Below are positions 14,956-34,289 of a DNA stretch of 64,000 bases, one piece after another (the stretch's first letter is position 1; each line of letters opens with the position of its first letter). This stretch comes from a virus. Its lineage: Duplodnaviria; Caudoviricetes. The position numbers and the translations under genes are program-made. The notes under the pieces are model-generated. The model was not told the origin of the DNA, searched no databases, and saw only the letters and a list, made by a program, of their open reading frames with translations. The stretch lies in IMG/VR virus record IMGVR_UViG_3300044614_001923. One strand, written 5' to 3'.

Positions 14956-17900
14956 AGTAAGGATTGGGGATGACATTTAACATAGAGCAAACAGTTCGGA
15001 AACCACCACTCAACTGACATGCCTCGCGGTAGGTGTTTGCCTCCTCAGAGTTGAGAAACTCCATAATAGCATGACCCTCCTCCTCACTGTCAACTAGTAT
15101 GTACATACTATTATCTGTCACACCATACTTACCATCATCATAGTAGGGGTAAAAGTTACCACCTTCCTTAAAGATGACTTTCTTTTGCTGATAGTATGGT
15201 TGAGGTTTCTTATCATAAACAAACTCAGGTTCTCCGTTAGGAGTAGTTTTGTTTACATTTACATAGCAACCTTCAAAGTAAACAGTAGGATCAAACTTAT
15301 TGGGATTTTTCTTATCTTTGAAACGTGGAGCGCGTCCAACAGCAGCATTCAGACGGGGAATAGATGCATCAGTATTCAGATACTTTTGAAGTAGATCTAG
15401 ACTGTGATTTGGTACAAAAGGATAATCACGGAAGTCTACATCAACCCACTCTTCAGATGCTTGAAAGCGGACTTTAGTAGGACCAGTGCGCTCCTCTTTG
15501 CAGTATGAATACCAATCATAAGAAGTGTTAGCATTGAAAACTTTAACACCTTCCTTAGAAGAATGAATAGAAAGTTTTTCTACCTGAACATCACGCATCA
15601 GATAGTGACGCTTATTGGTAGGTTTCCGTAGACCAGGAGGATGCACCATGATACCATAACCACCCTCTTTCAGCAGATTGTAACCAAGTTCCGCAAAATC
15701 TCCATAAGCAGACTTACCTGTTTTGTGGGAATTGATTGAATACGGAGGATTTGAAATTACGCCATCAAATTGGATTTTACCCATCAGACCCTCCAGGTCA
15801 GAGACCACGTTGATTGCACTATCCACACATTCTACCCTAAACAGGTGAGTTTGGCAAGACTCCCAGACCCAGATATTCTGGGCAGGGACGCCACACTTCT
15901 CAATCAGATAGGCAACTTGCGACCCAGAAGGATCACAAATCACAAGAATTTTGTGGTGAGGTTGAACATAATCTCCGATCATTTCAGAGAACATGTCATA
16001 AGGAATGCTGCGATGTTCTTTTGATGAGACTGAAAGTGTATCCAGAGTATCTGCGAAGGAATTCTTCATAGCAAGGGCAATATCTGTCGATACCTGAGAG
16101 ATACGATGCATTAGACGATTGTAGTTCAGAAGACCGTCATCAAGGCAACGTTCAATAATATTCTGATTATCACCAGTAGAACTGATGTAATAATCAGACT
16201 TCAGAACGTTATCAACAGAATTTACATTTTTACCATTACGCATTTCATAAAGAATTGTCAGAGGAATTGCTTCCAAAATAGACTTAATGGATTCTTTTTT
16301 GCGACTGAGTTCTTTATTATGAGCAGCAGGAGATTTACCTTCTACTTTTGTATTTGTCTTACCATTTGCACCATTATCATTCACTTCAGCACTTTTTGCG
16401 AGGTCTGAAGTAGAAGATTTGAGATCCAAGTTCATCTCAAATTCATTCAGTTTCTCCATATCAATATGATACACCGCACTTGCGATCAAAGAACGTGTAT
16501 CAGCAATATCACATGCAGTGATCTGATTGATTTGATCTTGAGTCATATGAACAAACTTATCTGCCCACTCTGAAATTGCAACAAATTCAATTGACTGATA
16601 GTTCAAAAGTTCTGGATTACTATCGCAAGCAATAGAATAAGATAAACGAATAGATTCTAGACACTTTTGGGGGGAAAATTCAATCACATTGTAATCATGA
16701 TCACCCGACCCACCACGCGATGCACCTTGAATCCAAAACTCAGTAGATTTGCCATCAGAGCAATTAATAACCGTATCAATATCTTTGACAGTTACCCCAA
16801 GAACATTTGCCCAACGAGTAATAATCATAGTCTTAGTATTCTCAGCAACATGCTTGCGAATCATGTCCGCATCAACACCAGACTCACCGATTGCAACAAG
16901 AGGAGAATAGTCCTTAATATAGTCTGCAATCAGTACACATGCTTCTGCACTAGGCATCAGCAAATATGCATGTTGAGTATCATTTAGAAGGCGATCTTTT
17001 GGATTACGAATGTGACGCTGAGTAGAAAGATAGTTATGCACAAAGTCAATTACCAGACTCTCATGTTCAAACTTACCATCTTTAATAGAAAAGATGTTGT
17101 TCATTGCATCAGGCAAGTCACCAAAGATTTTACGATACTCTTGAGACTCATACTTTGCGAGGATTACATGCATTTTGCCACGATGAAAAACACCGCGCTG
17201 AACGTCAAGTTGCTCATCAAAGTATGTGTAAATGAAAGTGTTCTCTTGAGAGAAATCAGATGCTAGTTTGAAAGCAGTTCCAGACACATACATGCAAGGA
17301 ACGTTCTTTAACTTAGAACGAATCTCTTTCCACTGCTTAGCACCATATCCGATATGGCATTCATCATAACAAAGAAAATCTACTTGATGAATGTCTTGGA
17401 TTTTATTCACAAGACCCTGAATTGTAGACCAAAGAATAACTTGAATACCTTCAACTTGCGACCAGTATTCTAATTGTTCTTTCCAATTTTTATCAGCAAG
17501 ACAGATATATCTAAAGTGATCAAAGTCTATAAAGTTCTCAGAATCTTCTTTCCAAGATTGTTCTGGAGACTTGCTACGAGAAACAATCAAAGAAATCTTA
17601 AACTTGCGATCTAGAATGTGGGAAAGAACCATCACTGATTTACCTGCGCGACACTTTGCCCACAAAAGAAACTCACAATATTCCTTATTTGCTTTCTTAA
17701 TAAACTCCACTTGATAAGGACGAGGAGTAAACTTTACTTTCTCATCAAGAATTTTCCCATCAAGAGAAAACTGCTTACAGCACATATCTACAATAATTTC
17801 TTCAGTGTATGAGTGATCTCCACGAAAAGCAAAAATTTCTTTATGCTTTTTTGAATATGGAAGAGTCTTCAAAAAAGCATGGATATCGTGATCACGACCA

Positions 17901-18094
17901 TCAAAGTCTTTAAAGAAAGCAATAACTCTATAATCCCCATTACCATCAGGTGAAATTGCTTCAAGCATTGCCCTTGCTTTGGAGTGATCCCCCATAGAAA
18001 GACGACCATTCACAAGATCTTGTTCAGTCTCACCGCATCCGATAATCAGATGAGGCATTTCAAAGTTGGGAGTGATAAAGTAAATGTTTTTCAT
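14936..18094 (-). CDS. restriction-modification-like fusion: putative GIY-YIG/T5orf172-like nuclease + SF2 helicase + N6-adenine methyltransferase/TRD
   Basis: N-terminal IYFITP..MPHLIIG..ET..RL...DHDIH..L...EIF; PRPYQ, AKCRAGKS, DECH; C-terminal FDGVISNPPY. Confidence 0.8.
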   Translation of the reverse strand: MKNIYFITPNFEMPHLIIGCGETEQDLVNGRLSMGDHSKARAMLEAISPDGNGDYRVIAFFKDFDGRDHDIHAFLKTLPYSKKHKEIFAFRGDHSYTEEIIVDMCCKQFSLDGKILDEKVKFTPRPYQVEFIKKANKEYCEFLLWAKCRAGKSVMVLSHILDRKFKISLIVSRSKSPEQSWKEDSENFIDFDHFRYICLADKNWKEQLEYWSQVEGIQVILWSTIQGLVNKIQDIHQVDFLCYDECHIGYGAKQWKEIRSKLKNVPCMYVSGTAFKLASDFSQENTFIYTYFDEQLDVQRGVFHRGKMHVILAKYESQEYRKIFGDLPDAMNNIFSIKDGKFEHESLVIDFVHNYLSTQRHIRNPKDRLLNDTQHAYLLMPSAEACVLIADYIKDYSPLVAIGESGVDADMIRKHVAENTKTMIITRWANVLGVTVKDIDTVINCSDGKSTEFWIQGASRGGSGDHDYNVIEFSPQKCLESIRLSYSIACDSNPELLNYQSIEFVAISEWADKFVHMTQDQINQITACDIADTRSLIASAVYHIDMEKLNEFEMNLDLKSSTSDLAKSAEVNDNGANGKTNTKVEGKSPAAHNKELSRKKESIKSILEAIPLTILYEMRNGKNVNSVDNVLKSDYYISSTGDNQNIIERCLDDGLLNYNRLMHRISQVSTDIALAMKNSFADTLDTLSVSSKEHRSIPYDMFSEMIGDYVQPHHKILVICDPSGSQVAYLIEKCGVPAQNIWVWESCQTHLFRVECVDSAINVVSDLEGLMGKIQFDGVISNPPYSINSHKTGKSAYGDFAELGYNLLKEGGYGIMVHPPGLRKPTNKRHYLMRDVQVEKLSIHSSKEGVKVFNANTSYDWYSYCKEERTGPTKVRFQASEEWVDVDFRDYPFVPNHSLDLLQKYLNTDASIPRLNAAVGRAPRFKDKKNPNKFDPTVYFEGCYVNVNKTTPNGEPEFVYDKKPQPYYQQKKVIFKEGGNFYPYYDDGKYGVTDNSMYILVDSEEEGHAIMEFLNSEEANTYREACQLSGGFRTVCSMLNVIPNPYYVNKAN

Positions 18095-18131: not shown

Positions 18132-18161
18132 ATTATAAGGGAAATCTTAGGGGTGTGTCAA
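18132..18161 (-). promoter_or_regulatory. sigma70-like promoter TTGACA-N18-TATAAT for the RM-like gene
   Basis: consensus hexamers 38 nt upstream of ATG 18094. Confidence 0.75.
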
Positions 18162-18602
18162 GCGGTTTGGAAAAGAATACACAAAGTCATTTAAACCAAG
18201 ATATTCGATATACAAAAGTTCTTCCATTTGTCTTGCTTCAATTTCCCATGGTTGATTTTCATACTCAGTTTCAGTATAATCTATACCTCTCCAAAGACGT
18301 TTACCATGTTTGTCTTTAAGATTGCCCATAACATGCTGATAGACATGCCATAGTTCATGAAACAAAGTTTTGAGATAGTGATCTGAATTCATACGATTAT
18401 GAATCTCAATTTCAAACTCTCTAGGACGGTAATTGCAATCCATAACCGTACACCATCCATAAACTCCTTCACGCATCAATCCGCGATGATTGATTTCTAT
18501 CTCAAGTTTATGTCTTGGTAGATACTTTGCAATAAACCACTCTGTAGCGTTAATACAACGTTTCTTGCTATAGTTGCGTCCAGAGATATACAATGTAAGC
18601 AT
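18147..18602 (-). CDS. zinc metallopeptidase-like protein (HExxH, SprT-like)
   Basis: TLFHELWHVYQ and QPWEIEA. Confidence 0.75.
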   Translation of the reverse strand: MLTLYISGRNYSKKRCINATEWFIAKYLPRHKLEIEINHRGLMREGVYGWCTVMDCNYRPREFEIEIHNRMNSDHYLKTLFHELWHVYQHVMGNLKDKHGKRLWRGIDYTETEYENQPWEIEARQMEELLYIEYLGLNDFVYSFPNRLTHP

Positions 18603-18727: not shown

Positions 18728-18785
18728 ACAATAACCCCACCCAGAGATATCTGAGCGGGGTGTGTGACACTTTCTAAACTGTCAT
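18728..18785 (-). promoter_or_regulatory. early-type promoter element: GTGACAC-N8-CTGTCAT, 30 nt, TATTGT
   Basis: repeated motif at the border between the late glycan island and the early region. Confidence 0.7.
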
Positions 18786-19141
18786 TGATATATTTTTATT
18801 TCACGAAATTCTGAATTATATGAATTATTAATTTCTTTTTTAATCTTTGATCTTTCATCGTTTAATTTATAGACCGAACGTGCAAGTTCAATGAACCTAG
18901 CACAAAAATTTTGAGAAGATTCAAATCTTCTTACTTCATTCTCAACCTCCCAAAGATTTTTGTTTACATTCTTTAGTTTATAAATTAAACTTATCTCATA
19001 AACATTATTTGCTATTGCAATGTTTATGAGTTCATTTAATTCTTTTTCTACATATTCACTTGAGGTTTTTTGAAACTTTATTTGAAGTATGCTTATTTTG
19101 TCTAGAAGTTCGCCAACCGAAATTGGAATAGTTATTTTCAT
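18782..19141 (-). CDS. DUF6165-like protein
   Basis: MKITIPISVGELLDKISILQIK...LW..E..R......F..LARSVYKLNDERSKIK. Confidence 0.8.
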   Translation of the reverse strand: MKITIPISVGELLDKISILQIKFQKTSSEYVEKELNELINIAIANNVYEISLIYKLKNVNKNLWEVENEVRRFESSQNFCARFIELARSVYKLNDERSKIKKEINNSYNSEFREIKIYQ

Positions 19142-20694
19142 AATGGAGCATCAAGATTAATATTAGTTTTAATGAACTCAATTAATTTTTCATTCTTAGA
19201 AACTATTCCCAATCCAAATGTATGAGTAAAATTGACTTTTGGTAAGTCTAATTCCTCAAAGAATCTTTTTACCCCATATTCATTACCGTTAATATTTTCA
19301 ACCATAGTATCATGAAATAGAATAATACCATCATCGTCTAAGAATTTACTCCATGTCTCATAATCATTCTTTACTGATTCATATGCATGATCCCCGTCTA
19401 TATGGAGCAGATTAATCTTTTTATCCCAAGTCTTAGCAACATCATCAAAAGTACCTTTAATGAAGGTTACAGAGTCATCTAGACCAGTCTCACGCGCTTT
19501 CTGAGTGACAAATTCAAACAGTTGGTTAGAATCTCTTGCGCCCGCATATTGATCACCTTCGAAGGTATCAACTCCATATACTTTTTGTCCAACCTTAGGT
19601 GTTCCAAATACAAATGTAGAATATCCATGATCAACACCAAGATCGACCACAACCTCAGGTTTAATTGTAGATACCAACCACTTTGCAAAATTCTTGTGTC
19701 CTTTCCAGCAACTATGAATATCCTCATAGTTTTTTCTGCTCAACTCTTTGATTGCCTCACTTCTTGCTGAAGATTCTCTTAATTCTGGAATAAAAGCAGT
19801 TGAGAATACAGTAAGATCCAGATTTCCAATTTCTTTACTGAAACCAAAAAGATTTTGGAAAGATTCGATTGCAAACGGTTCCCCAAGCATCAAAGACTCA
19901 CTCATTGAATGAATAAGATAATTTGCAGATCTTTGAATATCTCCATTCTGGAAAAATATTTTACTACATTCAACAAACACTTTTACTCTAAAACTATTAA
20001 AATATGCTTGAGTGCAAGTTAAGAATTGCTGTCCATAATCTAAAGCTAGTTCATAATTTTTTACAGTTAGATGATGATTGAAAACAAACCAAATGTAATA
20101 CCAATTTGTAGGATTAGTCTTAAGTTCTCTCTCACAAATTGAAAGGTAAAAAAGTTCTTTATCTACACTTTTATTAATTAACTTTGTAATTTTCGTAGTG
20201 ACATCTACTACATTTTCTTTTGGAAAGTTTTCCGTTGCTACAAAAATTGGAGTTTCATGAACAGCATTAACCCACTTATAATTTTCTTTTCTATGAAAAC
20301 GAATGTGAACTTCATTTGATGGATAAATTTGTCCGTCTTTATCATCAAATCTAAGATGCTTAAATGCGCTGAATTGATCTTCAATCTGATCTAAACCATC
20401 TGCAAAGTAATCGTCAATATCTTCATTGAAATCTAAACTCAAGCACCAATCATTTGTTGCATATGAAAGTGCCTGATTTCTTGCTACTGAAAAATCAAAC
20501 TCATCTCTAGATTGTGGATGCTCATAAACAGTAATTCCAGCATCCCTCAGCAACTGAACTGTATTGTCAATACTACCAGTATCAACTACAACAACCTCAT
20601 CAAATTTTTCCGCATTCTTTAGAAACTTTTCAATATTCTTTTCTTCATTTTTTGCGATAGAATATAAACTTACTTTCATAGGTACTTCTCCCAA
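19138..20694 (-). CDS. GT2 glycosyltransferase + helical/TPR-like region + class I SAM methyltransferase
   Basis: IAKNEEKN, VVDTGSIDNT, FDFSVARN; C-terminal VDLGVDHGYS, LHIDGDHAYE, GIILFHD. Confidence 0.85.
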   Translation of the reverse strand: MGEVPMKVSLYSIAKNEEKNIEKFLKNAEKFDEVVVVDTGSIDNTVQLLRDAGITVYEHPQSRDEFDFSVARNQALSYATNDWCLSLDFNEDIDDYFADGLDQIEDQFSAFKHLRFDDKDGQIYPSNEVHIRFHRKENYKWVNAVHETPIFVATENFPKENVVDVTTKITKLINKSVDKELFYLSICERELKTNPTNWYYIWFVFNHHLTVKNYELALDYGQQFLTCTQAYFNSFRVKVFVECSKIFFQNGDIQRSANYLIHSMSESLMLGEPFAIESFQNLFGFSKEIGNLDLTVFSTAFIPELRESSARSEAIKELSRKNYEDIHSCWKGHKNFAKWLVSTIKPEVVVDLGVDHGYSTFVFGTPKVGQKVYGVDTFEGDQYAGARDSNQLFEFVTQKARETGLDDSVTFIKGTFDDVAKTWDKKINLLHIDGDHAYESVKNDYETWSKFLDDDGIILFHDTMVENINGNEYGVKRFFEELDLPKVNFTHTFGLGIVSKNEKLIEFIKTNINLDAPL

Positions 20695-21392
20695 TCAATA
20701 CAAGGTGATAGAAATTCTGAGTGACAATGTGTGGAATATCCAGGTATAGATGATGCCAAATATTTTCCTTTTTGACTTAATTCAAGAAATTTAATATGAT
20801 CATTGGATGGTTCAACATCCGTTGAGTATTTAACATGGATATCTAAGTCATCTTTTAAATTACCAAAGGTAGTAGCGAAGGTATTTGTAGTTGAAGGAAC
20901 AGGTCTCCAATGAGAATTTTCTGTGATTAAAACTCTGGACATTAGACTTGAATACATTCCACTGTATTTGTCCCCATGATCATACAATGTAATGTATTTC
21001 ACCGTGTCCTTTTCATTCACTTTAATATCAAATCCTTCAATTAAAACTTGAGTCCAATTATCTCTATGAACATAATCATCTTCTAGAAAGTAAATGATTG
21101 TATTATCATCAAAGTTTTGACTATCAACATATTCTAAGGTTTTTAGGAAACTTTTTGCTTCTCCACCTTCGTTAATTTTTACTAAACCTTCTTCATCTTT
21201 TAAAAATGTATCTTCAATTTTTCCATAATGTTCATCATATATGATGGTATAATTGATCAGTTCTGGATCAAGAGTTCTTTTAAAATTTTCAAATACTTTT
21301 TCTTTATCCCACCAAGATGGTCTAGATCTTGATGGTTGCTCTTGCAACTTAGAGTAAAAGCAATGACGTAAAAATACTTCAACCTTTTTCAT
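20676..21392 (-). CDS. putative GT-A fold glycosyltransferase
   Basis: IIYFLEDDYVH (ExDD/DxD-like); YITLYDHGDKY. Confidence 0.65.
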   Translation of the reverse strand: MKKVEVFLRHCFYSKLQEQPSRSRPSWWDKEKVFENFKRTLDPELINYTIIYDEHYGKIEDTFLKDEEGLVKINEGGEAKSFLKTLEYVDSQNFDDNTIIYFLEDDYVHRDNWTQVLIEGFDIKVNEKDTVKYITLYDHGDKYSGMYSSLMSRVLITENSHWRPVPSTTNTFATTFGNLKDDLDIHVKYSTDVEPSNDHIKFLELSQKGKYLASSIPGYSTHCHSEFLSPCIDWEKYL

Positions 21393-22075
21393 TTTGCCAT
21401 GTTCCCAAAAAATTCTTTTGCTGTTTGAATAGTTTTTTCTTCTTTAGATACTTTCATCACATACTTGTCTTTGAAACTTTCTTTTTCAAAGACTATCATT
21501 GAGTTGTAAAAAGATAATCCTGATAGGTTTTCTATTACTGGATTAAATGGTTCTTCCATGTATTCAATATTCATGTTATGAACAAAGTTACTAAAAACAG
21601 AAATTGAATTTGTATTAGATCTCAATCCTCCTTGAAATATATTAAAATAAGCGGTGTGAGTATCTTCTACAATATAACATCCACCATTATTCAGAGTTGG
21701 ATACAAAAAGAAAAAAGAATTTAGAACATCGGATTGAATGTGACTTCCATCATCAATGATAATATCAAAAGGACCATGCTCTTCGCATATTCTTTTTAGA
21801 AAAATCTCATCTGATTGGTCTCCAATCTCTACAGTAATTTGATCCTCAGCAAATTTAAATTCTTCATGAATATCAATTCCTAAAATTTCAGAGTCGGGTC
21901 CAAAATACTGTTTCCACATTTGCAGGGAACCACCACCTTGAACGCCAATTTCAAGTAATTTTATAGGTTTATTTCTATACTTAGATAAGTGCCTCTCATA
22001 TAAGTCGAAATAATGTAACCATTTATGAATTGGTCTATCATTATTTTGCTTAAAGATTTCAATTAATGATTTCAT
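21389..22075 (-). CDS. class I SAM-dependent (sugar O-)methyltransferase
   Basis: HKWLHYFDLYE, LLEIGVQGGGS, GIDI, DIIIDDGSH, YIVEDT. Confidence 0.85.
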   Translation of the reverse strand: MKSLIEIFKQNNDRPIHKWLHYFDLYERHLSKYRNKPIKLLEIGVQGGGSLQMWKQYFGPDSEILGIDIHEEFKFAEDQITVEIGDQSDEIFLKRICEEHGPFDIIIDDGSHIQSDVLNSFFFLYPTLNNGGCYIVEDTHTAYFNIFQGGLRSNTNSISVFSNFVHNMNIEYMEEPFNPVIENLSGLSFYNSMIVFEKESFKDKYVMKVSKEEKTIQTAKEFFGNMAK

Positions 22076-22863
22076 AGATTAATATTAAATTTGTCAAAGA
22101 GATCTGTATTTTCTTTTCCTATAACTTCTTCTGGTGGAAGATTAGTTCTACCAAGTTTGGAGCGGATTTTATGAAGATTTTCTAATCCCCAAGCAGCATC
22201 TTTTTCTTCTGCACATGTATTTAGAATGTTATTAAAGTCGTGGTCAAAGGATTCTATCTGCAAAAAATTATAAATCTTTTCTAATTCTTTCTGTGGATCG
22301 TTAGTTAGGTTATTATAATCAACCAAATGAATATTGCTACGAAAGTTACTCAGTCCAAATACTGTACTTTCATATGGGTCAGAAATATAATTTCTCCATA
22401 GACATTCAACTCTATTGTCTAGTGTAATTTCTTTTCCAATTGATCTTAGATAATTGTCAACAAAATTATCTTGTTGATTATTTTTTTTAATTAATGTAAT
22501 GTATGAAGCAATTACTTCACTAATTCTTCTGTTTGTGCAGATAATTTTTGGATCTTTTCCTAAGAATTTTTTAACTGAATTTACATTTCTAGGCCATGCT
22601 CTATGTTTATCAATCACATATTCTTTAGGTATATGGGAATAAAAATTATTAAGTATAGATGAATATGTATTATGAGTAATATTTATTTTATCATAAGTAT
22701 ATTGAATATCTAATCTAGAAAAGTTTTCATCAACTAAACAAAGTAAGTCTGATAATGGACTTGTTGGAGTTACATGAATATCTGGGTGCTGATTTAAAAT
22801 CGACCCAAGAAGTGTAGATCCTGATCTTGGAAGACCAGATAGAAATAACAAAGAATTTTTCAT
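22072..22863 (-). CDS. sulfotransferase
   Basis: 5'-PSB loop FLSGLPRSGSTLL; IDKHR; downstream R...S 3'-PB-like segment. Confidence 0.85.
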   Translation of the reverse strand: MKNSLLFLSGLPRSGSTLLGSILNQHPDIHVTPTSPLSDLLCLVDENFSRLDIQYTYDKINITHNTYSSILNNFYSHIPKEYVIDKHRAWPRNVNSVKKFLGKDPKIICTNRRISEVIASYITLIKKNNQQDNFVDNYLRSIGKEITLDNRVECLWRNYISDPYESTVFGLSNFRSNIHLVDYNNLTNDPQKELEKIYNFLQIESFDHDFNNILNTCAEEKDAAWGLENLHKIRSKLGRTNLPPEEVIGKENTDLFDKFNINL

Positions 22864-22866
22864 AAT

Positions 22867-24099
22867 TTATGGGTATAATACTGTTCCGTCATATTTGTTT
22901 GCTAGAGTCCATTGTGACATTGGACCAACTGATATCTTTCTCCAATCAGTATTTGTTGTCACTTGTGTTGGGAATGAAACTCTTTGAATTAAAGTATTGC
23001 CAATACCAACTTGACCGTTACTATTTAATCCCCATGCCCATAATGTGCCATCTGATTTCAAAGCAACGGTATGATATTGTCCACATGAAACATCTTTCCA
23101 ATTACCTGATCCATAATTATTATTAAAATCAGCTCCATATAATTGGAATGGTGATGTATAAATTGAGTTATTTGTTACGCCAACGCCTAACTGACCATCA
23201 CTGTTTATTCCCCATACCCATAAAGAACCATTATCTTTAATTGCAGCACTGTGAGATCTTCCCGCTGATGCTGTTCTCCAAACAAATCCTGGTTCAACTT
23301 CAGTTGGAATAGTTACAAAAAGGATTGATGGATTTTTTCCACATTGAGCTCCATCATTTACTCCCCATGCATATAATTTTCCATCATTTTTAATTGCTAA
23401 TGCGTGTCCGTAACCACAATCAACTGACTTCCAATCATTTCCACCAGCAAATGTGGTTACTGGAGTTGATCTAATAAGATCTGGTCCAGGAAATGTATAT
23501 GTTCCTATTCCAAGTCTTGCTCCATAATTATTTCCCCAAACCCACAAACTTCCGTCAGTTTTAACAGCTGCTGCAAAATGTCTTCCACAAGAAACTTGCT
23601 TCCAGTTATTTCCCCCAGCAAATGTTGTAACTGGAGTTGAACGTGTAACAGTGATTCCTATTCCTAATTGTCCAAACTGATTTTGTCCCCAAGTCCATAG
23701 GGAACCATCAGTTTTAATTGCAGCAACAAATGTTTCTGCTCCAGTAGAAAGACTTCTCCAAGTTTTATCTCCACTAATTACAGTTGGAGTTGTTGCTTGA
23801 ACAGGAACCCCATTTGTCCCTAATTGTCCATAACTATTGTTTCCCCAAACGAACATTTGTCCGTCAGCCGCTATTCCATATCCACTAAAACGACCATTGC
23901 ATATATCATTCCAATATTGTGCTCCAGATAACATAATAACTGGACTACTTCTGGTTATTAAATCATTAGTTCCCAATTGCGCGTTTACATTGAGTCCCCA
24001 GTTCCAAGCAGTTCCCTGCTGAAACAATCTTGCTGATACAAAGACATCATCAAATGCTACTTCTTGTCCGTTTTGTGTGAAATTAAATTTACCTGACAT
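22867..24099 (-). CDS. RCC1/BLIP-II-like repeat beta-propeller protein (paralogue 4)
   Basis: about seven repeats of H..AIK.DG.LW.WG.N..GQLG. Confidence 0.9.
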   Translation of the reverse strand: MSGKFNFTQNGQEVAFDDVFVSARLFQQGTAWNWGLNVNAQLGTNDLITRSSPVIMLSGAQYWNDICNGRFSGYGIAADGQMFVWGNNSYGQLGTNGVPVQATTPTVISGDKTWRSLSTGAETFVAAIKTDGSLWTWGQNQFGQLGIGITVTRSTPVTTFAGGNNWKQVSCGRHFAAAVKTDGSLWVWGNNYGARLGIGTYTFPGPDLIRSTPVTTFAGGNDWKSVDCGYGHALAIKNDGKLYAWGVNDGAQCGKNPSILFVTIPTEVEPGFVWRTASAGRSHSAAIKDNGSLWVWGINSDGQLGVGVTNNSIYTSPFQLYGADFNNNYGSGNWKDVSCGQYHTVALKSDGTLWAWGLNSNGQVGIGNTLIQRVSFPTQVTTNTDWRKISVGPMSQWTLANKYDGTVLYP

Positions 24100-24100
24100 T

Positions 24101-24472
24101 TTAGAGCTCTATCCAGTTATTTTCTTTCAAGTAAATGACTGGAGTATTCATTAAAGAACTCCAGATTTTAAACCAATCTAATGTATTAGTATTTATTTCC
24201 TGATTCTCTATAGGTAAAATTTTTAAGTATTGTTTTTCTTCTTTGTTTTCAACTGAAACTAAAAACTTACATCTATCAGGTCTCATTTCAATAGGTAACA
24301 CTTCTTGAGCCCAAGCACAAAAGTAATTCATGCAAACATTTGGTCTTGCTTTATGGACACTGCATCCAGACCCGCATAAAAACTTGCAGGATTTTCCATT
24401 GCCAAAATCATAACCATAAGCATTACCAATTAACCAAGTGCAACATGCTGTGCAATCTCCACATTCTCTCAT
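24101..24472 (-). CDS. YkgJ-like cysteine-cluster (Zn/Fe-S) protein
   Basis: CGDCTACC...C..L...C..H..RP..C..Y.C.W. Confidence 0.75.
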   Translation of the reverse strand: MRECGDCTACCTWLIGNAYGYDFGNGKSCKFLCGSGCSVHKARPNVCMNYFCAWAQEVLPIEMRPDRCKFLVSVENKEEKQYLKILPIENQEINTNTLDWFKIWSSLMNTPVIYLKENNWIEL

Positions 24473-25140
24473 AGCATGTATTCTTTCTCTGAAAAATAAT
24501 AAGTATCTAGATCATTTTCTATACAATAATTATCTTTCCACTTGTTCAATGATTTTGCCTTATGGTTTTTATTTGAACCTATCCAAAATTCACGATCAAG
24601 ACGATAACCACTTTCCAAATACTTATTATCTAGTGTATTAATATAAGATGCATTTGCCCACCAAAAGTTTCCTGGATAAAATCCTACGCCTTCATTTGAA
24701 GTTCTAGATCCATCAGACCATACAGTATCTCCCAATGGTTCCCATGTTTGTCCAGCACAATCATATCCTTCTTCTAGTGCTGTGACACATTCTTTCCAAC
24801 GGTCAATGACAAAATATTCCATCATAAGTCTCCACGAATCGTGATGGAGAGTTTGTTTACTTCCTCCCTTTAAATGAAAATAAAGAACTTTATAATCTCC
24901 ATTTTCCTTACAAAAATCTCTTAAAGAGCACAGAGTATCTGTCTCTTCTTTTTGATTCTCATTATAAACAACTCTCGCATTATCTGGAATATTGAATAAT
25001 TCATTTGAACCATTAACTCCAATATGAATTAGGTCTGCTGCTTTAACAAGACCAGATGCACATAAACGATGGATTTGTTGTTGGTAAATAAATGCACTTA
25101 TTCCATTCTGAAATACGTGATAGAAGATTGCAATTTTCAT
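24469..25140 (-). CDS. putative glycosyltransferase-like protein
   Basis: IAIFYH, KVLYFHLKG, FYPGNFWWA, EFWIG; context of GT genes. Confidence 0.55.
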   Translation of the reverse strand: MKIAIFYHVFQNGISAFIYQQQIHRLCASGLVKAADLIHIGVNGSNELFNIPDNARVVYNENQKEETDTLCSLRDFCKENGDYKVLYFHLKGGSKQTLHHDSWRLMMEYFVIDRWKECVTALEEGYDCAGQTWEPLGDTVWSDGSRTSNEGVGFYPGNFWWANASYINTLDNKYLESGYRLDREFWIGSNKNHKAKSLNKWKDNYCIENDLDTYYFSEKEYML

Positions 25141-25946
25141 AGTGAATATGAATCTCCATCCATTCCTTTAAGAACATCTAGACCCAAAGTTGGAATGTTT
25201 AAAATTTTATTCCTATCTAAGAAATGATAAAGAGAATGTTCTATATCAATTCCTGCAGTATATTGAATTGCTCTTTCCATATAACCAAAACTTTTTTCTA
25301 AAGCATCAACAACATCACCAAAAAGGAACCGATCAAATGACCATAATCCAGTTACAACCATTCCTTTTGCTGCGTAAAGATCTAAGTATATATTTTCAGT
25401 ATCTTCAAATCTCTTACTATCATAAGAATAAAGTTTGGCGACATAATAATTTTGAAGGAAACTGGTCTTATAATCTTCAATGTTGAAATAATTATTCAGA
25501 GTGTAACGTCCGCTGATTTTAAAGACACGAGTTACATCTGAGAAAATATTATGAGTCTTCATGTATTCAAACACGTTTAAGAGTGCTCTACACTCAAGCA
25601 TTGACTTGCCATAAACAAAGCGGTCTGGTTGCTTGTTTAGATTATCATAAAGAAGTTGGATTCCTGGCTCTCCATAAAATTCTAAAAATAGATCAGACTC
25701 TTCAATAAATCTTTCTCTATACTTTTCACTAATCTTTATTGGAGATACTTCATAAACACAAATGTAAGCATCTGGAACTTTTTCTTTTACTGATCTGATT
25801 GTTTCTAAAGTTTGTTCAAAACGTTGCTCAGCAGTAAAATAACTAAAATCATTTGATTTAAAATGCTCAACGGCAGAACCAACTAAAAATAAAAATTTAT
25901 AGTCCATAGAATGATGAAAGATAATTTGGTGATGTTGAATGATCAT
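25137..25946 (-). CDS. hypothetical protein of the glycan-modification island (likely start MDYKFL)
   Basis: EQRFEQTLETI, RVFKISGRY motifs; coupled to neighbours. Confidence 0.65.
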   Translation of the reverse strand: MIIQHHQIIFHHSMDYKFLFLVGSAVEHFKSNDFSYFTAEQRFEQTLETIRSVKEKVPDAYICVYEVSPIKISEKYRERFIEESDLFLEFYGEPGIQLLYDNLNKQPDRFVYGKSMLECRALLNVFEYMKTHNIFSDVTRVFKISGRYTLNNYFNIEDYKTSFLQNYYVAKLYSYDSKRFEDTENIYLDLYAAKGMVVTGLWSFDRFLFGDVVDALEKSFGYMERAIQYTAGIDIEHSLYHFLDRNKILNIPTLGLDVLKGMDGDSYSL

Positions 25947-26583
25947 TTAGAAAATCTTCAACTCTGTTTGACCAGAGTTCTGGGATTTCTTCTTTAAACT
26001 TACTAATTCTAAAATAATGCCATGCTCCTGGATACCAAGTCCCAGTTCCATACATTCCGTATCCTGATAGTTTATAACCTTCTCCCTCATCCCATCCGTA
26101 AGGATACATGAGTTGATAGTTCATTCCTATTTGATTTGCTCTCAAAGTTAGTATTTGTGCGGTATCAATTTGATTTTCATTCTGAATAAACCAAGAAAGA
26201 CTTGGCGATCCTAGTGATTGCCACGCAGTTTTATTCACAAATAAACATGAAGCCGCAGCATAAATGTGATTTCTCATATTAGTGTGAGAAATATTTTGAG
26301 CATGACCAACAAAAGATTTATTGATTTTTGCCCAGTTATATGCTTTTTCTAAGACTTCCTTTTTATATGGAAGGCAATCAATATCTAAAAAACAGGCAGT
26401 ATCTTTTTCTTCTTCTAAAATAGAAGTCATGAAGTTGCCATGTGCAGTATAAACTGCATTGTAATCATCATAAAACTTTTCTTTGTGATAGACTACTTCT
26501 AAGTCAAGTTTATCACAACATTTTTTATGATCTTCTAAGATTTGATTTGGAATATTTTCTGTACAAAATGTATGAAATCTCAA
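25897..26583 (-). CDS. putative glycosyltransferase/nucleotide-diphospho-sugar transferase-like protein
   Basis: ACFLDIDCLP DxD motif. Confidence 0.55.
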   Translation of the reverse strand: MRFHTFCTENIPNQILEDHKKCCDKLDLEVVYHKEKFYDDYNAVYTAHGNFMTSILEEEKDTACFLDIDCLPYKKEVLEKAYNWAKINKSFVGHAQNISHTNMRNHIYAAASCLFVNKTAWQSLGSPSLSWFIQNENQIDTAQILTLRANQIGMNYQLMYPYGWDEGEGYKLSGYGMYGTGTWYPGAWHYFRISKFKEEIPELWSNRVEDFLNDHSTSPNYLSSFYGL

Positions 26584-27932
26584 GTTAACCCTCTATTCAT
26601 TAAAAATTCACTCAACTTATTTATTGGACCTTTCCAATCTCTAGGTTTTACTTGCTTAAATATATGAACATTGTCTCCATACCAAGCAGACTTTCCTGAT
26701 TCATGTATCCAAACATAATATTCCATAATAGGAACAAATACACAAACTTCTTTTCCTAAAGATGCTGCAACATGAGCAGTAAAACTACATGATGTGATTA
26801 TAAGATCTAGGTTATTGATGATTGAGAAAGTATCCGCATATTCTCTATCGGGAATAGATAAAGATTGTTTTATTTCTGGATATTTGTCTGCGTCTTTATT
26901 GTCAGCATGTGTTTGTAATGAATAGAGTGAAATGTTTTTGTTCTTAAGAACACTCATATAATCATCAAGACTTACGCTTCTAAACTGATTCTGTTCATAT
27001 CCAGAACTTGATGCCCAAAATAATCCTACTTTAAAACCTTCGTCTTTATGCATCCATTTCCACTTCTCATCAATTTCTGCAATTGGTTTCAGATAAGGAT
27101 GCTTTCCAAGTTCTTCAACATTCAAGTCTAGATGATAAGGCAGTGCTAGACCATAAACCCAACAAGAATCTTTAGGAAATTGTGGTTTATCCCAACAACA
27201 GACTGCATCATATCCATTGTAATTGAATAATTCTACAAGTTCCCTTCGGGTAGAATTCCAAATTGGTTTCATTCCCAATTCTTTAAGATGTTTCATGAAG
27301 CGAATATGAATCACTTCATCACCAGCTCCGCATTGGTTATCAATAATAATAGTTCTTCCTGGAGTAACAGTTCCGTCCCACTTTTCATATTCGGGTAGTT
27401 TTTGATTCTTATATGCTTCAATTTCACCAGCTCTTAAAAAATGCTTTAATGCAGTTTTTATATCATTCTTTCTAAAGTAATGTCCAGATAGATTGTGATA
27501 TGCTTTTCTTTCAATCTCTTCTGGCAGTTTCTTTTGAAGAAGATTGAATAATAGTTTTTCAGATTTATCTTTCTGTCCTAATGCCGAGTATGCAAAAGTT
27601 TCTTCCAATAATAATTCTGAATCCTGTGGATTTATTTTCTTACAAAACTCTATTTGAGTAAGTGCTTTTTCTGGATAATTTGACTGATTATACGCATTAA
27701 TTAAATTTTTTGAAAGGATATATCTTTCTTGTTTTGTCTTTGCTTGTTGAAGTGCCTTTTCCCCATATTCAATTGCTTTGGGAAAGTTTTTGACTTCAAA
27801 AAATATCTTTGCAACATCATCATATTGTTGGACTGTTTGCGCTCTTTTCCCAAAGGCATCCAACAATTGATAAGTTAGTTCTTTTTCACTAAACGAATGT
27901 AATGTTTTTGCTACCAACTCAAGTGGATTCAT
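26580..27932 (-). CDS. TPR-repeat + GT9-like (GT-B) glycosyltransferase
   Basis: N-terminal TPR-like helices; WDG, QCGAGDEVIHIRF, KVGLFWA, YSLQ, DLIITSCS..AHVAASLGK. Confidence 0.85.
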   Translation of the reverse strand: MNPLELVAKTLHSFSEKELTYQLLDAFGKRAQTVQQYDDVAKIFFEVKNFPKAIEYGEKALQQAKTKQERYILSKNLINAYNQSNYPEKALTQIEFCKKINPQDSELLLEETFAYSALGQKDKSEKLLFNLLQKKLPEEIERKAYHNLSGHYFRKNDIKTALKHFLRAGEIEAYKNQKLPEYEKWDGTVTPGRTIIIDNQCGAGDEVIHIRFMKHLKELGMKPIWNSTRRELVELFNYNGYDAVCCWDKPQFPKDSCWVYGLALPYHLDLNVEELGKHPYLKPIAEIDEKWKWMHKDEGFKVGLFWASSSGYEQNQFRSVSLDDYMSVLKNKNISLYSLQTHADNKDADKYPEIKQSLSIPDREYADTFSIINNLDLIITSCSFTAHVAASLGKEVCVFVPIMEYYVWIHESGKSAWYGDNVHIFKQVKPRDWKGPINKLSEFLMNRGLT

Positions 27933-27952
27933 AGATATAAATCAGTTTTATC

Positions 27953-27960
27953 TATTTATT
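27953..27960 (-). promoter_or_regulatory. late promoter AATAAATA
   Basis: NATAAATA 21 nt upstream of the GT9 start, at the head of a gap-free run to 18782. Confidence 0.65.
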
Positions 27961-27981
27961 TAATCCTCGTAGGATCTGATT
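27960..27981 (+). repeat. 22-bp direct repeat (1 mismatch), copy 1; copy 2 at 29169-29190
   Basis: ttaatcctcgtaggatc(t/c)gatt at the 3' ends of two unrelated genes, both ending SYED*. Confidence 0.9.
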
Positions 27982-29165
27982 GCAAAAACAGTTGCATTGT
28001 CATTAAAACTCACAGATTTCCAATTATTTCCACCTATGAATGTTGTGACTGGCGTTAATCTTAAAGTTGTATTATTAATTCCAAGTTGTCCAAAATTATT
28101 AAATCCCCAAATCCATAACGTCCCATCTGTTTTAATCGCTGCAGTGCTATTCCCTCCGCAAGAAATCTGTTTCCAATTGTTTCCTCCAGCAAATGTTGTG
28201 ACTGGAGTTAATGCGTTAGATACAGTATTAGTACCAAGTTGACCACTACCATTCAATCCCCAACCCCATAAAGTTCCATCAGTTTTAATTGCTGTGGTAT
28301 GGTAATACCCACAGCTAACCTGTCTCCAATTATTTCCCCCACCAAATGTTGTTATTGGAGTTGAACGGTTGGGTTGAGGGGAAGGTTGTCCAAGTTGTCC
28401 AATAGCATTACTACCCCATAACCATAAAGTTCCATCAGTTTTAACCGCTGCAGTATGAAGAGATCCGCAAGAAACTTGTTTCCAATCATTACCTCCAGCA
28501 AATGTAGTTACTGGTGTAGATCTATTTGCTGCAGTATTATTTGCTAATTGTCCATTAGTATTTTGACCCCATAACCATAAAGATCCATCAGTTTTTACTG
28601 CTGCAGTATGATTAAATCCACAACTCACTTGTTTCCAATTATTACCCCCCGCAAATGTAGTAACTGGTGTAGAAACAACAATATTGGAATTTATTCCAAG
28701 TTTTCCATAAGAGTTGTTTCCCCATGACCATAGAGATCCATCCGTTTTAATTGCTGCATTATGAAAAGGACCGCAACTTATTTGTTTCCAATTTGTTCCT
28801 CCAGAAAATGTAGTGATTGGAGTTCTAGAATTGCCTATATTATTTGTTCCAAGACTAAGATAAAGAGAATTATTTCCACCCCAAATCCATAAAGTACCAT
28901 CATTTTTTATTGCAGTTGTATGGTGTCTTCCGCAAGCAACTTGTTTCCAGTTGGCACCACCTGCAAATGTTGTGATTGGAGTAGATTTGGATTCTATATC
29001 ATTTGTCCCTAATTGCCCATCAACACCAAATCCCCATCCCCATAACTCTGGGGTAATATATCGATTCGCAATGTTTAAATAAACACTATTAAAGTATTCT
29101 TTCTCTAGGAGTTTAGATCCTACATCAACTCCATCTGATCCTATGAAATTAGTTGTTGAGATCAT
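27960..29165 (-). CDS. RCC1/BLIP-II-like repeat beta-propeller protein (paralogue 3)
   Basis: seven ~52-aa repeats TPVTTFAGGNNWKQVSCG..HTAAIKTDGTLW.WG.N..GQLG. Confidence 0.92.
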   Translation of the reverse strand: MISTTNFIGSDGVDVGSKLLEKEYFNSVYLNIANRYITPELWGWGFGVDGQLGTNDIESKSTPITTFAGGANWKQVACGRHHTTAIKNDGTLWIWGGNNSLYLSLGTNNIGNSRTPITTFSGGTNWKQISCGPFHNAAIKTDGSLWSWGNNSYGKLGINSNIVVSTPVTTFAGGNNWKQVSCGFNHTAAVKTDGSLWLWGQNTNGQLANNTAANRSTPVTTFAGGNDWKQVSCGSLHTAAVKTDGTLWLWGSNAIGQLGQPSPQPNRSTPITTFGGGNNWRQVSCGYYHTTAIKTDGTLWGWGLNGSGQLGTNTVSNALTPVTTFAGGNNWKQISCGGNSTAAIKTDGTLWIWGFNNFGQLGINNTTLRLTPVTTFIGGNNWKSVSFNDNATVFAIRSYED

Positions 29166-29168
29166 TTC

Positions 29169-29822
29169 TTAATCCTCGTAGGATCCGATTACTACTGGAG
29201 GTCTAATGACAACTTCATAAACCTCATCTATTGTTTGACATGCATCAATCTCTTGGTTTTTTGCAAGTTCCCAATCAAATGCTTCTTGTACTTTTAGATC
29301 AATTTGCTGTAAAATATATTCAATATCAGTTTTTGTAATCTCCACCCAAGTCTGATTATCAAATTTAAAATTGTAAGGACCAACACCACTCATTGCTTTT
29401 GATGCTAATGAGAGACGATTATCTCTGCTGGTTGATATCTTTACTTCCGTTCCGTTTATAGTTAGATTAATCTCAGTATTTTCTTTCTCTTTTCTGACTG
29501 GAGCAATTTCTACTTTTCTTTCCGCTTTTACTTGATCAATAGACTTATCTCTTGTACCATAAAGAAATACCACTTCATTTTGGAAAATTCCTACTGATGG
29601 TCCCGTATGCTCATGATATTTGGCATTATAAAACGGAGAGTACTCATTTTTTGCTGGAACAATTCTTACAGTGTCCGTAATATTAAAAGGAACTCTTGCC
29701 TCGTCAATTGAAGATACACGCTGATCCAATTCTAGATCATCTTCTAAAACAGAATTAATCATTCTGTAATTAAATGGAATTGGTCCTAACAAGACCATTG
29801 AACCGTCTACTAGAGCGTACAT
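29169..29822 (-). CDS. DUF4376-like tail-associated protein
   Basis: C-terminal R..KE...I..NG....T....R......NFKF...WV.......I....QEAFDWE...EI. Confidence 0.7.
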   Translation of the reverse strand: MYALVDGSMVLLGPIPFNYRMINSVLEDDLELDQRVSSIDEARVPFNITDTVRIVPAKNEYSPFYNAKYHEHTGPSVGIFQNEVVFLYGTRDKSIDQVKAERKVEIAPVRKEKENTEINLTINGTEVKISTSRDNRLSLASKAMSGVGPYNFKFDNQTWVEITKTDIEYILQQIDLKVQEAFDWELAKNQEIDACQTIDEVYEVVIRPPVVIGSYED

Positions 29823-29839
29823 ATACTTTTTTTAATTAT

Positions 29840-31036
29840 TTAGTATTCTGGTCCTGATGTTACTACCATAGTATGTCCTTGTCCAGTAGATACTTGTTTC
29901 CAATTATTTCCGCCAGCAAATGTTGTAACTGGAGTTGAACGGTTTACAGTATTACCATTTCCCAATTGTCCAGTATTATTTTGACCCCATAACCATAATG
30001 TTCCGTCAGTTTTGATTGCTGCAGAAAAATTAGTTCCACAACTTACTTGTTTCCAGTTATTTCCTCCAGAAAATGTTGTTACAGGGGTTAAAATACCTCC
30101 AGGATTATTGTCATTAATGCCCAGCATTCCACTAAAATTACTTCCCCAAGCCCATAAAGTTCCATCTGTTTTTATTGCTGCCATATGCAAAATGCCACAT
30201 GAAACTTGTTTCCAGTTGGTATTTCCAGCAAAAGTTGTTACTGGCGTAGATCTATTATTAAATTGATTATTTCCAAGTATTCCAGCAGTTCCATTTCCCC
30301 ATGCCCATAAAGTGCCGTCTGTTTTAATTGCTGCTGTAAATTCAGATCCACATGCAACTTGTTTCCAATTAGTTCCTGCAGCTGATGTTTCTACTGGAGA
30401 AAATCTATCCGTTGTATCATTGACTCCTAGTTGAGCATAAGAATTACGTCCCCACCCCCATAAAGTTCCATCAGTTTTAACTGCTGCAGTATGATTAAAT
30501 CCTCCACTAATTTGTTTCCAATTATTACCTCCAGTAAATGTTGTAACTGGAGTTGAACGATCTACAGAATTGTTAGTTCCCAACTGACCAAATTGATTTC
30601 TCCCCCAAGTCCATAGGGTCCCATCAGTTTTGATTGCTGTAGTAAAAAGTCTTCCACAAGAAACTTGTTTCCAGTTAGTTCCTCCAGCAAATGTTGTGAC
30701 TGGCGTGGATCTATTGGCAGTTCCTGCACCTGTTCCTAAATTATTTCCCAATTGTCCATAAGAATTTAATCCCCAAGTCCATAAAGTTCCATCAGTTTTG
30801 ATTGCTGCACTGTGACTTTCTCCACAAGAAATCTGTTTCCAATTATTTCCACCAGGAAGCGTTGTGATTGGTGTTGATCTGCTGGATGAAATTAAATTTT
30901 GCCCAAGCTGTCCAGAAGTATTGTCTCCCCAAACCCAAAGTTGATCACCAATCCATTGGTCTACTAACCAGGATTCGGTAATGTAAGTTTGGTTTTCTAA
31001 GTCTCCTTCTGGAGTTCTAAAGTTGTTTATTGGCAT
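29840..31036 (-). CDS. RCC1/BLIP-II-like repeat beta-propeller protein (paralogue 2)
   Basis: seven repeats; N-terminus nearly identical to paralogue 1. Confidence 0.92.
   Translation of the reverse strand: MPINNFRTPEGDLENQTYITESWLVDQWIGDQLWVWGDNTSGQLGQNLISSSRSTPITTLPGGNNWKQISCGESHSAAIKTDGTLWTWGLNSYGQLGNNLGTGAGTANRSTPVTTFAGGTNWKQVSCGRLFTTAIKTDGTLWTWGRNQFGQLGTNNSVDRSTPVTTFTGGNNWKQISGGFNHTAAVKTDGTLWGWGRNSYAQLGVNDTTDRFSPVETSAAGTNWKQVACGSEFTAAIKTDGTLWAWGNGTAGILGNNQFNNRSTPVTTFAGNTNWKQVSCGILHMAAIKTDGTLWAWGSNFSGMLGINDNNPGGILTPVTTFSGGNNWKQVSCGTNFSAAIKTDGTLWLWGQNNTGQLGNGNTVNRSTPVTTFAGGNNWKQVSTGQGHTMVVTSGPEY
30935..31027 (+). repeat. 93-bp identical direct repeat, copy 1; copy 2 at 32160-32252
   Basis: base-by-base comparison of the 5' ends of RCC1 paralogues 1 and 2. 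Confidence 0.92.
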
Positions 31037-31037
31037 T

Positions 31038-34281: not shown

Positions 34282-34289
34282 TATTTATT
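34282..34289 (-). promoter_or_regulatory. late promoter AATAAATA
   Basis: intergenic NATAAATA upstream of 34257. Confidence 0.65.

Follow-up and report, generated by a model that had tools for sequence, protein, structure and literature searches.

The 64,000-nt stretch of DNA analysed here (the window) comprises nearly all of the 64.8-kb IMG/VR viral contig IMGVR_UViG_3300044614_001923 and is estimated to cover about 26% of the genome. The source virus is a freshwater T4-like cyanomyovirus; its baseplate hub protein and those of Synechococcus and Prochlorococcus myoviruses share about 28% identity, and megablast of the region under study against phage records gave no match. The region holds an operon of eleven minus-strand open reading frames (ORFs), named g1 to g11, which runs from 27932 down to 18782 and encodes glycosyltransferases (GTs), methyltransferases and a sulfotransferase together with an RCC1 beta-propeller. 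An eleven-gene minus-strand operon had been proposed in a preliminary description of this DNA, and its coordinates were reproduced exactly, each junction being an overlap of 4 or 11 nt or a gap of 1-3 nt. The longest ORF of g3 (listed gene 25137-25907) begins at 25946, and g10 (19138-20694) likely starts at the ATG at 20679. A terminator-like hairpin (18734-18761, minus strand) with a 12-bp stem, seven G-C pairs and a following TATTGT lies after g11.

Twenty nucleotides upstream of the g1 ATG stands the late-promoter-like motif AATAAATA (27953-27960, minus strand), which is of the NATAAATA type described as the late-promoter motif of cyanomyoviruses (PMC2984593). ATAAATA was found 12 times in the window against 27.7 expected, a depletion, and all 12 copies are on the coding strand. 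At least six of them stand 20-40 nt upstream of structural-gene starts, and copies precede fibre genes at 34282, 37880, 42964 and 53649, that at 34282-34288 belonging to the fibre with the S74 chaperone described below. The motif upstream of g1 is a phylogenetic footprint: of 18 distinct upstream regions taken from close relatives, 17 have [AC]TAAATA at -28 to -33 relative to the g1 start. The earlier placement of the operon behind a late promoter agrees with this conserved motif ahead of g1. That there was one such motif, at 27953, was right as to the copy there but not as to its being alone, since three more ATAAATA lie inside the operon at 26618, 24190 and 22680. The operon is probably transcribed late, the timing being read from the promoter motif.

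The operon is placed at the end of a fibre/RCC1 block, which it continues as previously described. Upstream of g1, again on the minus strand, Pfam identified an RCC1 propeller (27960-29165), a DUF4376 protein (29169-29822) and another pair of RCC1 propellers (29840-31036 and 31038-32261); the three propellers are candidate acceptors of the modification discussed below. The gene order of this block (27960-32261) was also found in Synechococcus phage S-SRM01 and in the related viral loci L003 and L005. Next to it lies a tail fibre gene (32242-34257, minus strand) with a C-terminal S74 intramolecular chaperone (PF13884, 7.2e-15), which matched many PHROG tail-fibre families.

Genes and proteins of the operon

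The product of g1 (26580-27932, 450 residues) is a candidate FlmG-like protein O-glycosyltransferase with a tetratricopeptide repeat (TPR) domain at about residues 1-175 and a GT-B domain of the GT9 fold at about 187-450. Its AlphaFold 2 (AF2) model, with a predicted local distance difference test score (pLDDT) of 89.5, shows a TPR domain of ten helices, spanning residues 3-173, and behind it a Rossmann domain with two lobes. The best match of this model in the Swiss-Prot set of AFDB was Caulobacter FlbA (P21296, 596 residues), with a template-modelling (TM) score of 0.78 and an E-value of 2.8e-15; residues 8-450 were superposed on 132-596 at 15% sequence identity, with predictions on both sides, and the runners-up, SPINDLY/OGT and the lipopolysaccharide (LPS) heptosyltransferases, reached a TM of 0.45 at most. 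We take FlbA to be FlmG, because each has 596 residues and because flbA is named in older literature cited by the FlmG paper. FlmG is a flagellin O-glycosyltransferase of 596 residues in which the TPR domain binds flagellin and the GT-B domain transfers the sugar (PMC7591256). A fold search (VIA) with the C-terminal domain of g1 placed GT9 enzymes highest, with Z 15.8 to 3tov, 15.3 to 1psw, 14.9 to the protein heptosyltransferase TibC (4rap) and 14.5 to WaaC over 232-247 residues, the root-mean-square deviation from TibC being 3.1 over 242 residues. The N-terminal domain gave Z 12-13 to MamA and to consensus TPR proteins and a profile E-value of 0.003 to the latter, and its TPR hits in Pfam were weak and below cut-off. 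No flagellin or nonulosonic-acid synthesis family was found among the scanned products of the window, about 26% of the genome. Going by the model, g1 may work like FlmG but is not a flagellin glycosyltransferase, none of the genes identified in the window being for flagellin. The ADP-heptose pathway marker GmhA/SIS_2 gave nothing over cut-off in S-SRM01 and four large related viral genomes; the host could supply an ADP-heptose donor.

The other large GT is g10 (19138-20694, 518 residues, or 513 from the ATG at 20679), which consists of a GT2 domain (PF00535, 3.5e-13), a helical linker and a Methyltransf_24 domain (PF13578, 2.5e-23). Among solved proteins its GT domain came closest to GmaR (4.1e-11, residues 8-163) and to the SunS family (9e-7 to 2e-6, residues 13-260). 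The NCBIfam SunS model matched at 7.1e-9 with 35 bits against a cut-off of 350, in an alignment of residues 13-260 that reaches beyond the GT core. GmaR is the Listeria flagellin O-GlcNAc transferase and the SunS family are peptide S-glycosyltransferases; in both a GT-A domain is followed by helical or TPR repeats which recognise the protein or peptide acceptor (PMC9638930).

Smaller GT-A enzymes accompany these two. The core gene g9 (20676-21392, 238 residues) gave only chance-level matches to PDB sequence profiles and was resolved by fold: its AF2 model (pLDDT 83) matched GnT-I (1fo9) with Z 14.5 in the VIA wide search, dozens of GT-A chains scored above Z 10, and of the 115 chains at Z ≥8 nearly all of those listed were GT-A. 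E104, D105 and D106 were invariant in 20 relatives. The g9 protein is also letter-for-letter identical on 7 contigs, the longest of 208,539 bases, so that this phage, or a near-identical one, exists in a much longer assembly. GT-A-like folds are likewise predicted for the core genes g3 (25137-25907, 256 residues), whose ESM Atlas model had a TM of 0.62-0.66 to GT8, DUF1647, GT2 and GT15 clusters, and g4 (24469-25140, 223 residues). The latter scored 0.98 to DUF8361 clusters in Atlas features, its structure matched a 'glycosyltransferase' cluster, as well as proteins with GT17 and GT34 fusions, with a TM of 0.82, and PF27674 is recorded on its homologues in L003 and L005. The accessory gene g2 (25897-26583, 228 residues) has a conserved 'FLDIDC' stretch with invariant D67 and D69. 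It matched nothing in Pfam, NCBIfam, PHROG or PDB profiles, nor the g9 family by hhalign (probability 0.4%), and gave a weak language-model lead to a cluster in which 13% of members carry GT2.

Sulfation and methylation of the product are suggested by the next group of genes. The protein of g7 (22072-22863, 263 residues) is a sulfotransferase dependent on 3′-phosphoadenosine 5′-phosphosulfate (PAPS), with matches to PF13469 (4.1e-18; 66.9 bits against a cut-off of 27) and PF00685 (6.6e-15). It has a GLPRSGSTLL 5′-phosphosulfate-binding (5′-PSB) loop, a 3′-phosphate-binding (3′-PB) motif with R112 and S120, and the invariant residues R13, G15, T17, K106, R112 and S120. Compared with solved structures the profile of the g7 family matched TPST1 best (1.1e-13 over positions 5-208) and TPST2 at about 4e-9, and heparan sulfate 3-O-sulfotransferases at about 0.08. 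The two Glu of the TPST1 'GEE' stretch, where the catalytic base of TPST presumably lies, face Pro and Thr in this alignment. The accessory gene g8 (21389-22075, 228 residues) encodes a MycE/TylE-like sugar O-methyltransferase, close to PDB 3ssm (5.3e-32, residues 15-198), which we take to be MycE, and to demethylmacrocin O-methyltransferase 8ia9 (8.9e-29), with 28.2 bits to PF13578; it is absent from S-SRM01, L003 and L005.

Between the enzymes lie a seven-bladed RCC1 propeller and two small proteins. The propeller, g6 (22867-24099, 410 residues; PF25390 5.5e-77, PF00415 1.7e-60), is a further candidate acceptor, and an RCC1 gene stands in the same position in S-SRM01, L003 and L005. The gene g5 (24101-24472, 123 residues), core in phages, encodes a cysteine-cluster protein of the CxxCxxCC (YkgJ/YcgN) type with the invariant residues C4, C7, C10, C11, C29, C37, C47 and C52. 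PF03692 was weakly matched by 16 of 17 relatives, matches to YcgN models were weak, phrog_9155 was assigned, and PDB sequence profiles gave chance-level matches only. The last gene, g11 (18782-19141, 119 residues), encodes a small helical DUF6165/DUF4254 protein (PF19662, 1e-10). Two Kordiimonadales loci without RCC1 (L022:10270-10641 and L071:8889-9254) have, next to their g1-like gene, a DUF6165 homologue that shares about 42% identity with g11, and DUF6165 may be an accessory factor of the g1-like GT family. A role as a GlfM-like four-helix adaptor was considered and is not claimed, its sole support being the adjacency to g1-like genes in these two loci.

None of the eleven products has a predicted membrane helix, nor any 19-residue segment above 1.3 on the Kyte-Doolittle scale, and no flippase, polymerase or initiating phosphoglycosyltransferase is among them. 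All of the eleven products but g2 could thus be given a fold, family or function, ten in number. The assignments in the preliminary description largely stood: the sulfotransferase by Pfam and PAPS-binding motifs, the sugar O-methyltransferase by its closeness to the macrolide enzymes, the GT-A protein g9 by fold and invariant EDD motif, and the Cys-cluster protein, the RCC1 propeller and DUF6165 by the patterns and families named above. Two came through in part. Of 'three GT-like proteins' g3 and g4 are backed by their predicted folds, but the label of g2, with its weak lead only, was not verified; and in g10, described as GT2-TPR-MTase, the GT2 and methyltransferase domains are clear but Pfam detected no TPR in the middle of the protein.

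Occurrence of the cassette and its linkage to RCC1 genes

The closest isolate is the cultured freshwater Synechococcus phage S-SRM01 (Kyanoviridae, Serangoonvirus, 240.8 kb), which has a syntenic cassette at 50-74% protein identity (53-74% for gp338-gp348); its RCC1 proteins are gp335, gp337 and gp344. The g1 family has more than 300 close metagenome relatives, and at least 471 IMG/VR stretches encode a relative. A locus search from g3 alone returned no viral loci, and an alignment of the g1 family was used instead. Complete relatives of 258 kb and 208 kb carry the cassette in the same place, after a series of fibre, RCC1, DUF4376 and RCC1 genes. In the 258-kb L003 the cassette is followed by a 484-aa collagen-repeat/glycine-rich protein and a Phage_tail_APC chaperone (19019-20836), with fibre genes on both flanks.

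Viral loci were divided into 34 close ones, with g1 at ≥55% identity, and 46 distant ones, with g1 at 30-47%. RCC1, g3, g4 and g5 were present in all 34 close loci, g7 and g9 in 33, g10 in 29 and g11 in 28; g2, which is also found in S-SRM01, was present in six and g8 in two. Relatives carry 2OG-Fe(II) oxygenase, other methyltransferase or GT2 genes in place of the accessory genes. A small 2OG-Fe(II) oxygenase directly follows g1 in L002 (21614-22072), L003 (11325-11783) and L005 (11325-11807) and is absent from the window. In the distant loci RCC1 and the sulfotransferase were each found in 31/46, g5 in 27/46, DUF4376 in 23/46 and an S74 fibre in 19/46.

A scan of one genome per prokaryotic species gave 83 g1 relatives, of which 80 loci were kept. 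The relatives are mostly from Bdellovibrionota, and also from Saccharibacteria, other members of the candidate phyla radiation (CPR), Methylococcales, Phycisphaerales, alphaproteobacteria and Woesearchaeota. Of the 80 loci, 42 have RCC1 at a distance of no more than 8 kb (median gap 368 bp), on the same strand in 38 of these 42, and a g7-like sulfotransferase is nearby in 18 (median gap 130 bp). A g5 homologue was found in one cellular locus and an S74-like match in two. When five Bdellovibrionota genomes were searched whole, 5 of 6 g1-like genes abutted an RCC1 gene, and in two of these genomes (3.5 and 3.8 Mb) the g1-adjacent RCC1 locus was the sole RCC1 locus, which by chance would be expected in each genome with a probability of roughly one in a thousand. 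At least 13 cellular loci have a sulfotransferase and a GT9-like domain in a single ORF, in both orders; fusion ORFs of 560-800 aa were seen in L068, L060, L061, L063, L073, L074, L048 and L080 and in L011, L012, L015, L019 and L027. Some contigs of metagenome-assembled genomes could be mis-binned phage DNA. A complete Bdellovibrio chromosome and contigs of 180-800 kb nevertheless point to a coupling of g1 and RCC1 that is chromosomal as well. Genomic co-occurrence with RCC1, which the preliminary description had named for the island as a check on its proposal, was found for g1 relatives in close viral, distant viral and cellular loci (34/34, 31/46 and 42/80).

Several other genes of the window lie outside the operon. 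Between its terminator and a sigma70-type promoter is a gene for a 151-aa SprT-like metallopeptidase with an HELWH motif (phrog_10499; 18147-18602, minus strand). The promoter, a perfect TTGACA-18-TATAAT (18132-18161, minus strand), stands directly upstream of 14936-18094 (minus strand), which encodes a 1052-aa ResIII helicase/Eco57I-type methylase protein, so that an early-looking block begins just past the terminator of the late-type operon. A carboxylesterase or alpha-beta hydrolase gene (34300-35355, minus strand) lies between two fibre genes and could encode a virion-borne deacetylase. A peptide deformylase gene (3140-3628, minus strand) adjoins a gene for a nucleotide-sugar epimerase/dehydratase of the short-chain dehydrogenase/reductase (SDR) type (3665-4693, minus strand). 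The SDR gene directly follows the cassette in S-SRM01, and about 14 kb of other genes intervene in the window. It is the only nearby nucleotide-sugar enzyme, is generic and does not reveal the sugar.

Candidate acceptors and alternative explanations

The RCC1 paralogues (27960-32261 and 22867-24099) carry in each blade a near-invariant RSTPVTTFAGG(T/N)NWKQVS, which is Ser/Thr-Pro-rich and present in seven copies per propeller. The Ser/Thr content is 17-25% in fibres and propellers and 9-15% in the enzymes, and in one stretch of an 834-aa protein 20 of 30 residues are Ser or Thr. The fibres and propellers are therefore Ser/Thr-rich as previously described, but such richness is generic to phage fibres and has no discriminating weight. 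A complex prediction of g1 with the adjacent RCC1 propeller gave no verdict (score 0.00, without controls) and weighs neither for nor against binding.

The reading that we favour, with a probability of a little under 0.6, is that the late operon encodes a soluble cytoplasmic protein-modification pathway acting on the phage's own RCC1 propellers of the tail-fibre module. A protein-modification pathway with RCC1 as the most likely acceptor is preferred because both large GTs are related to protein-glycosylating enzymes with helical acceptor-binding domains, because the products are all soluble and come without lipid-carrier machinery, because a late-type promoter is combined with a position inside the fibre module, and because in phages and bacteria alike g1-like genes show linkage to RCC1 and either linkage to or fusion with a sulfotransferase. 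The evidence points to RCC1 propellers rather than fibres in general. Several GT-A enzymes together with two sugar-type O-methyltransferase domains suggest a tailored oligosaccharide, not a single sugar, and the MycE/TylE-like nature of g8 likewise suggests tailoring rather than the addition of one sugar. The earlier hypothesis of a methylated, sulfated glycan on the phage's own tail proteins is supported in its glycan-building and tailoring set, in the protein-directed kinship of g1 (FlmG-like, GT9/TibC fold) and g10 (GmaR/SunS), in the soluble products and in the RCC1 linkage; modification of a virion protein, the nature of the sugars and the placing of sulfate on a glycan are its hypothetical part.

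Acceptor, chemistry, sequence of steps, late expression and biological role are inferred, and the pathway would run as follows. The TPR domain of g1 would bind the acceptor and its GT9-fold domain would put the first sugar on Ser/Thr, as FlmG does on flagellin and TibC on autotransporters. The GmaR/SunS-type GT domain of g10 would begin a second kind of glycan or extend the first, and the small GT-A enzymes g3, g4 and g9 would lengthen it. The sugars would be O-methylated by g8 and by the methyltransferase domain of g10, and g7 would add sulfate from host PAPS, either to the glycan or straight to the protein. The decorated propellers would then be assembled onto the fibres.

A number of observations weigh against this pathway. 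Adjacency does not make RCC1 the acceptor, and the propellers could be partners or scaffolds. The lack of membrane segments is weak evidence, because GT-A enzymes acting on lipid-linked sugars are also soluble. The earlier designation of g1 as TPR-GT9 holds by fold (TPR helices, GT9-type GT-B) but not by sequence: g1 had no match to Pfam GT9 (PF01075, Glyco_transf_9) even at E 10, and only 2 of 21 relatives matched it, at 0.0017 or weaker. The per-blade Ser/Thr-Pro motif is equally common in RCC1 genes which do not adjoin a GT. The pattern [ST][ST]P[VIT], tried as a mark of GT-associated RCC1 proteins, was rejected as non-discriminating since it occurs about once per blade, and equally often, with or without an adjacent GT. 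Nine distant viral loci (L158-L163, L165, L166 and L176) combine g1 with the sulfotransferase but lack RCC1 within 10 kb; their g1 relatives have about 33-35% identity and their sulfotransferases are 53-55% identical to g7. Alphaproteobacterial g1 relatives (Azospirillum, Kordiimonas and others) are also without RCC1 neighbours and may be true flagellin enzymes. Finally, the paper on S-SRM01 reports no virion proteome and leaves the cassette genes unmentioned.

Clusters of GT or 'LPS' genes in large cyanomyoviruses are usually read as modifiers of the host surface (PMC2984593; PMC12801897), and by that reading the enzymes would alter LPS, exopolysaccharide, S-layer or pilus glycans of infected Synechococcus with the RCC1 genes as unrelated neighbours. 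The purpose would be superinfection exclusion, less re-adsorption of progeny to debris, or evasion of grazers. Polysaccharide loci do typically contain GT-A enzymes, sugar O-methyltransferases and nucleotide-sugar epimerases like that at 3665-4693. We nevertheless consider host-surface remodelling improbable, as none of the enzymes is membrane-embedded or of the lipid-carrier kind, protein glycosyltransferases are the nearest matches of the two largest GTs, and the tight linkage of g1 and RCC1 recurs in unrelated phages and bacteria; a late-type promoter and a position in the fibre module are also a poor fit to exclusion, which is expected early. Much the same low probability is given to modification of another virion protein, with the propellers as lectin-like or scaffold partners or as co-inherited fibre tips. 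The acceptor could then be, for example, the fibre with the S74 chaperone, the DUF4376 protein or the Ser/Thr-rich proteins of 834 and 927 aa. The Ser/Thr content of the fibre and its neighbours exceeds that of the propellers, DUF4376 and S74-fibre genes co-occur with the cassette, and TPR-GT enzymes such as FlmG act on filament subunits. However, bacterial g1-like genes are coupled to RCC1 without phage fibre genes (S74-like match in 2/80), and RCC1 is the most constant neighbour in all groups.

Direct sulfation of protein at Tyr or Ser/Thr by g7, not of a sugar, would alter one step of the proposed pathway and not replace it. It is suggested by TPST1 and TPST2 being the top matches of the g7 family among solved structures, a ranking that may reflect the structures available, since few bacterial carbohydrate sulfotransferases of this Pfam family are solved. 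With the TPST1 'GEE' Glu pair not conserved, and with sulfotransferase-GT fusions that are explained no less well by the two enzymes working in turn on the same sugar, this variant seems unlikely but deserves to be kept in view. Hypermodification of DNA, in which the GTs would decorate modified bases, has in its favour that the phage is T4-like and that, by a work cited in PMC12619734, phage GTs are able to hypermodify DNA with glycans. A TPR acceptor domain, a sulfotransferase and sugar O-methyltransferases are ill-suited to that task, the motif is late-type and the location is the fibre module, the RCC1 linkage is found in bacteria too, and a review finds no evidence of DNA glycosylation in cyanomyoviruses (PMC2984593). 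We hold it to be extremely improbable.

Modification of RCC1 propellers may also be placed in a broader, tentative scheme, in which the odds seem to us somewhat against every part being right. RCC1 propellers of phage fibres, of predatory Bdellovibrionota and of ultra-small CPR/DPANN cells would form one class of attachment proteins, each with a portable kit of FlmG-like TPR-GT9 and sulfotransferase that in the cyanophage lineage was expanded to make a multi-sugar methylated glycan. The sulfated glycan would help to recognise prey or host surfaces or would shield the propeller, and the whole would be a so far undescribed cross-domain system of protein glycosylation and sulfation.

Relation to known systems and biological meaning

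FlmG and g1 share the plan of an N-terminal TPR and a C-terminal GT-B domain; FlmG is soluble and cytoplasmic and serves a single structural protein family, as is proposed for g1. They differ in that g1 is shorter by 146 residues and has RCC1 propellers, a sulfotransferase and additional GTs as genomic partners, and in that the acceptor of FlmG is flagellin, for which no gene was identified in the window. TibC and Aah (TibA/AIDA-I) have the GT9-type GT-B fold of g1 and are dedicated enzymes, encoded beside a repetitive adhesin, that O-glycosylate many of its repeat units in the cytoplasm. TibC, however, is without a TPR domain and is an iron-containing dodecamer by the title of PDB 4rap, and its acceptor is a beta-helix, whereas the candidate here is a beta-propeller. 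The likeness of g10 to GmaR and SunS lies in its N-terminal GT-A domain, which is most similar to these among solved proteins; unlike GmaR, g10 ends in a Methyltransf_24 domain rather than an anti-repressor domain.

Mycobacteriophages offer a precedent for phage-encoded GTs whose substrates are virion proteins of the phage itself (Freeman et al. 2023, as cited in PMC12619734 and PMC12801897). So far as the citing text describes them, the glycans there are on the C-termini of capsid and tail-tube subunits (PMC12619734), whereas the cassette described here, known from genes alone, has a larger enzyme set with sulfation and methylation and is tied to RCC1 fibre propellers. The 'LPS' or cell-wall clusters of the large cyanomyoviruses P-SSM2, S-SCSM1 and S-SCSM2R similarly combine GTs and nucleotide-sugar enzymes in genomes of more than 200 kb, and S-SKS1 and S-SCSM1 have an annotated sulfotransferase, which in S-SKS1 lies outside the fibre module. 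Those clusters are read as modifying the host surface (PMC12801897; PMC2984593), whereas the present cassette is embedded among fibre genes, late-type and coupled to RCC1. No publication was found that describes an RCC1/TPR-GT/sulfotransferase module, whether from phages or from bacteria. Set beside the published FlmG, TibC, GmaR and mycobacteriophage systems it would be a further form of dedicated protein O-glycosylation, and the window shows the module in an expanded version of eleven genes, in a lineage with a cultured member.

If the proposed reading is true, T4-like cyanophages themselves encode the enzymes by which their receptor-binding apparatus is glycosylated and perhaps sulfated. 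Phage-encoded virion glycosylation, described so far for mycobacteriophages in the literature consulted, would then extend to abundant aquatic phages and would include sulfation, for which that literature describes no case on a phage protein. As S-SRM01, with its syntenic cassette, is in culture, the reading is directly testable. The 'LPS' and cell-wall genes of large cyanophages would have to be reread, in that at least this set would serve the virion and not the host surface, and RCC1 propellers would gain a functional context in both bacteria and phages.

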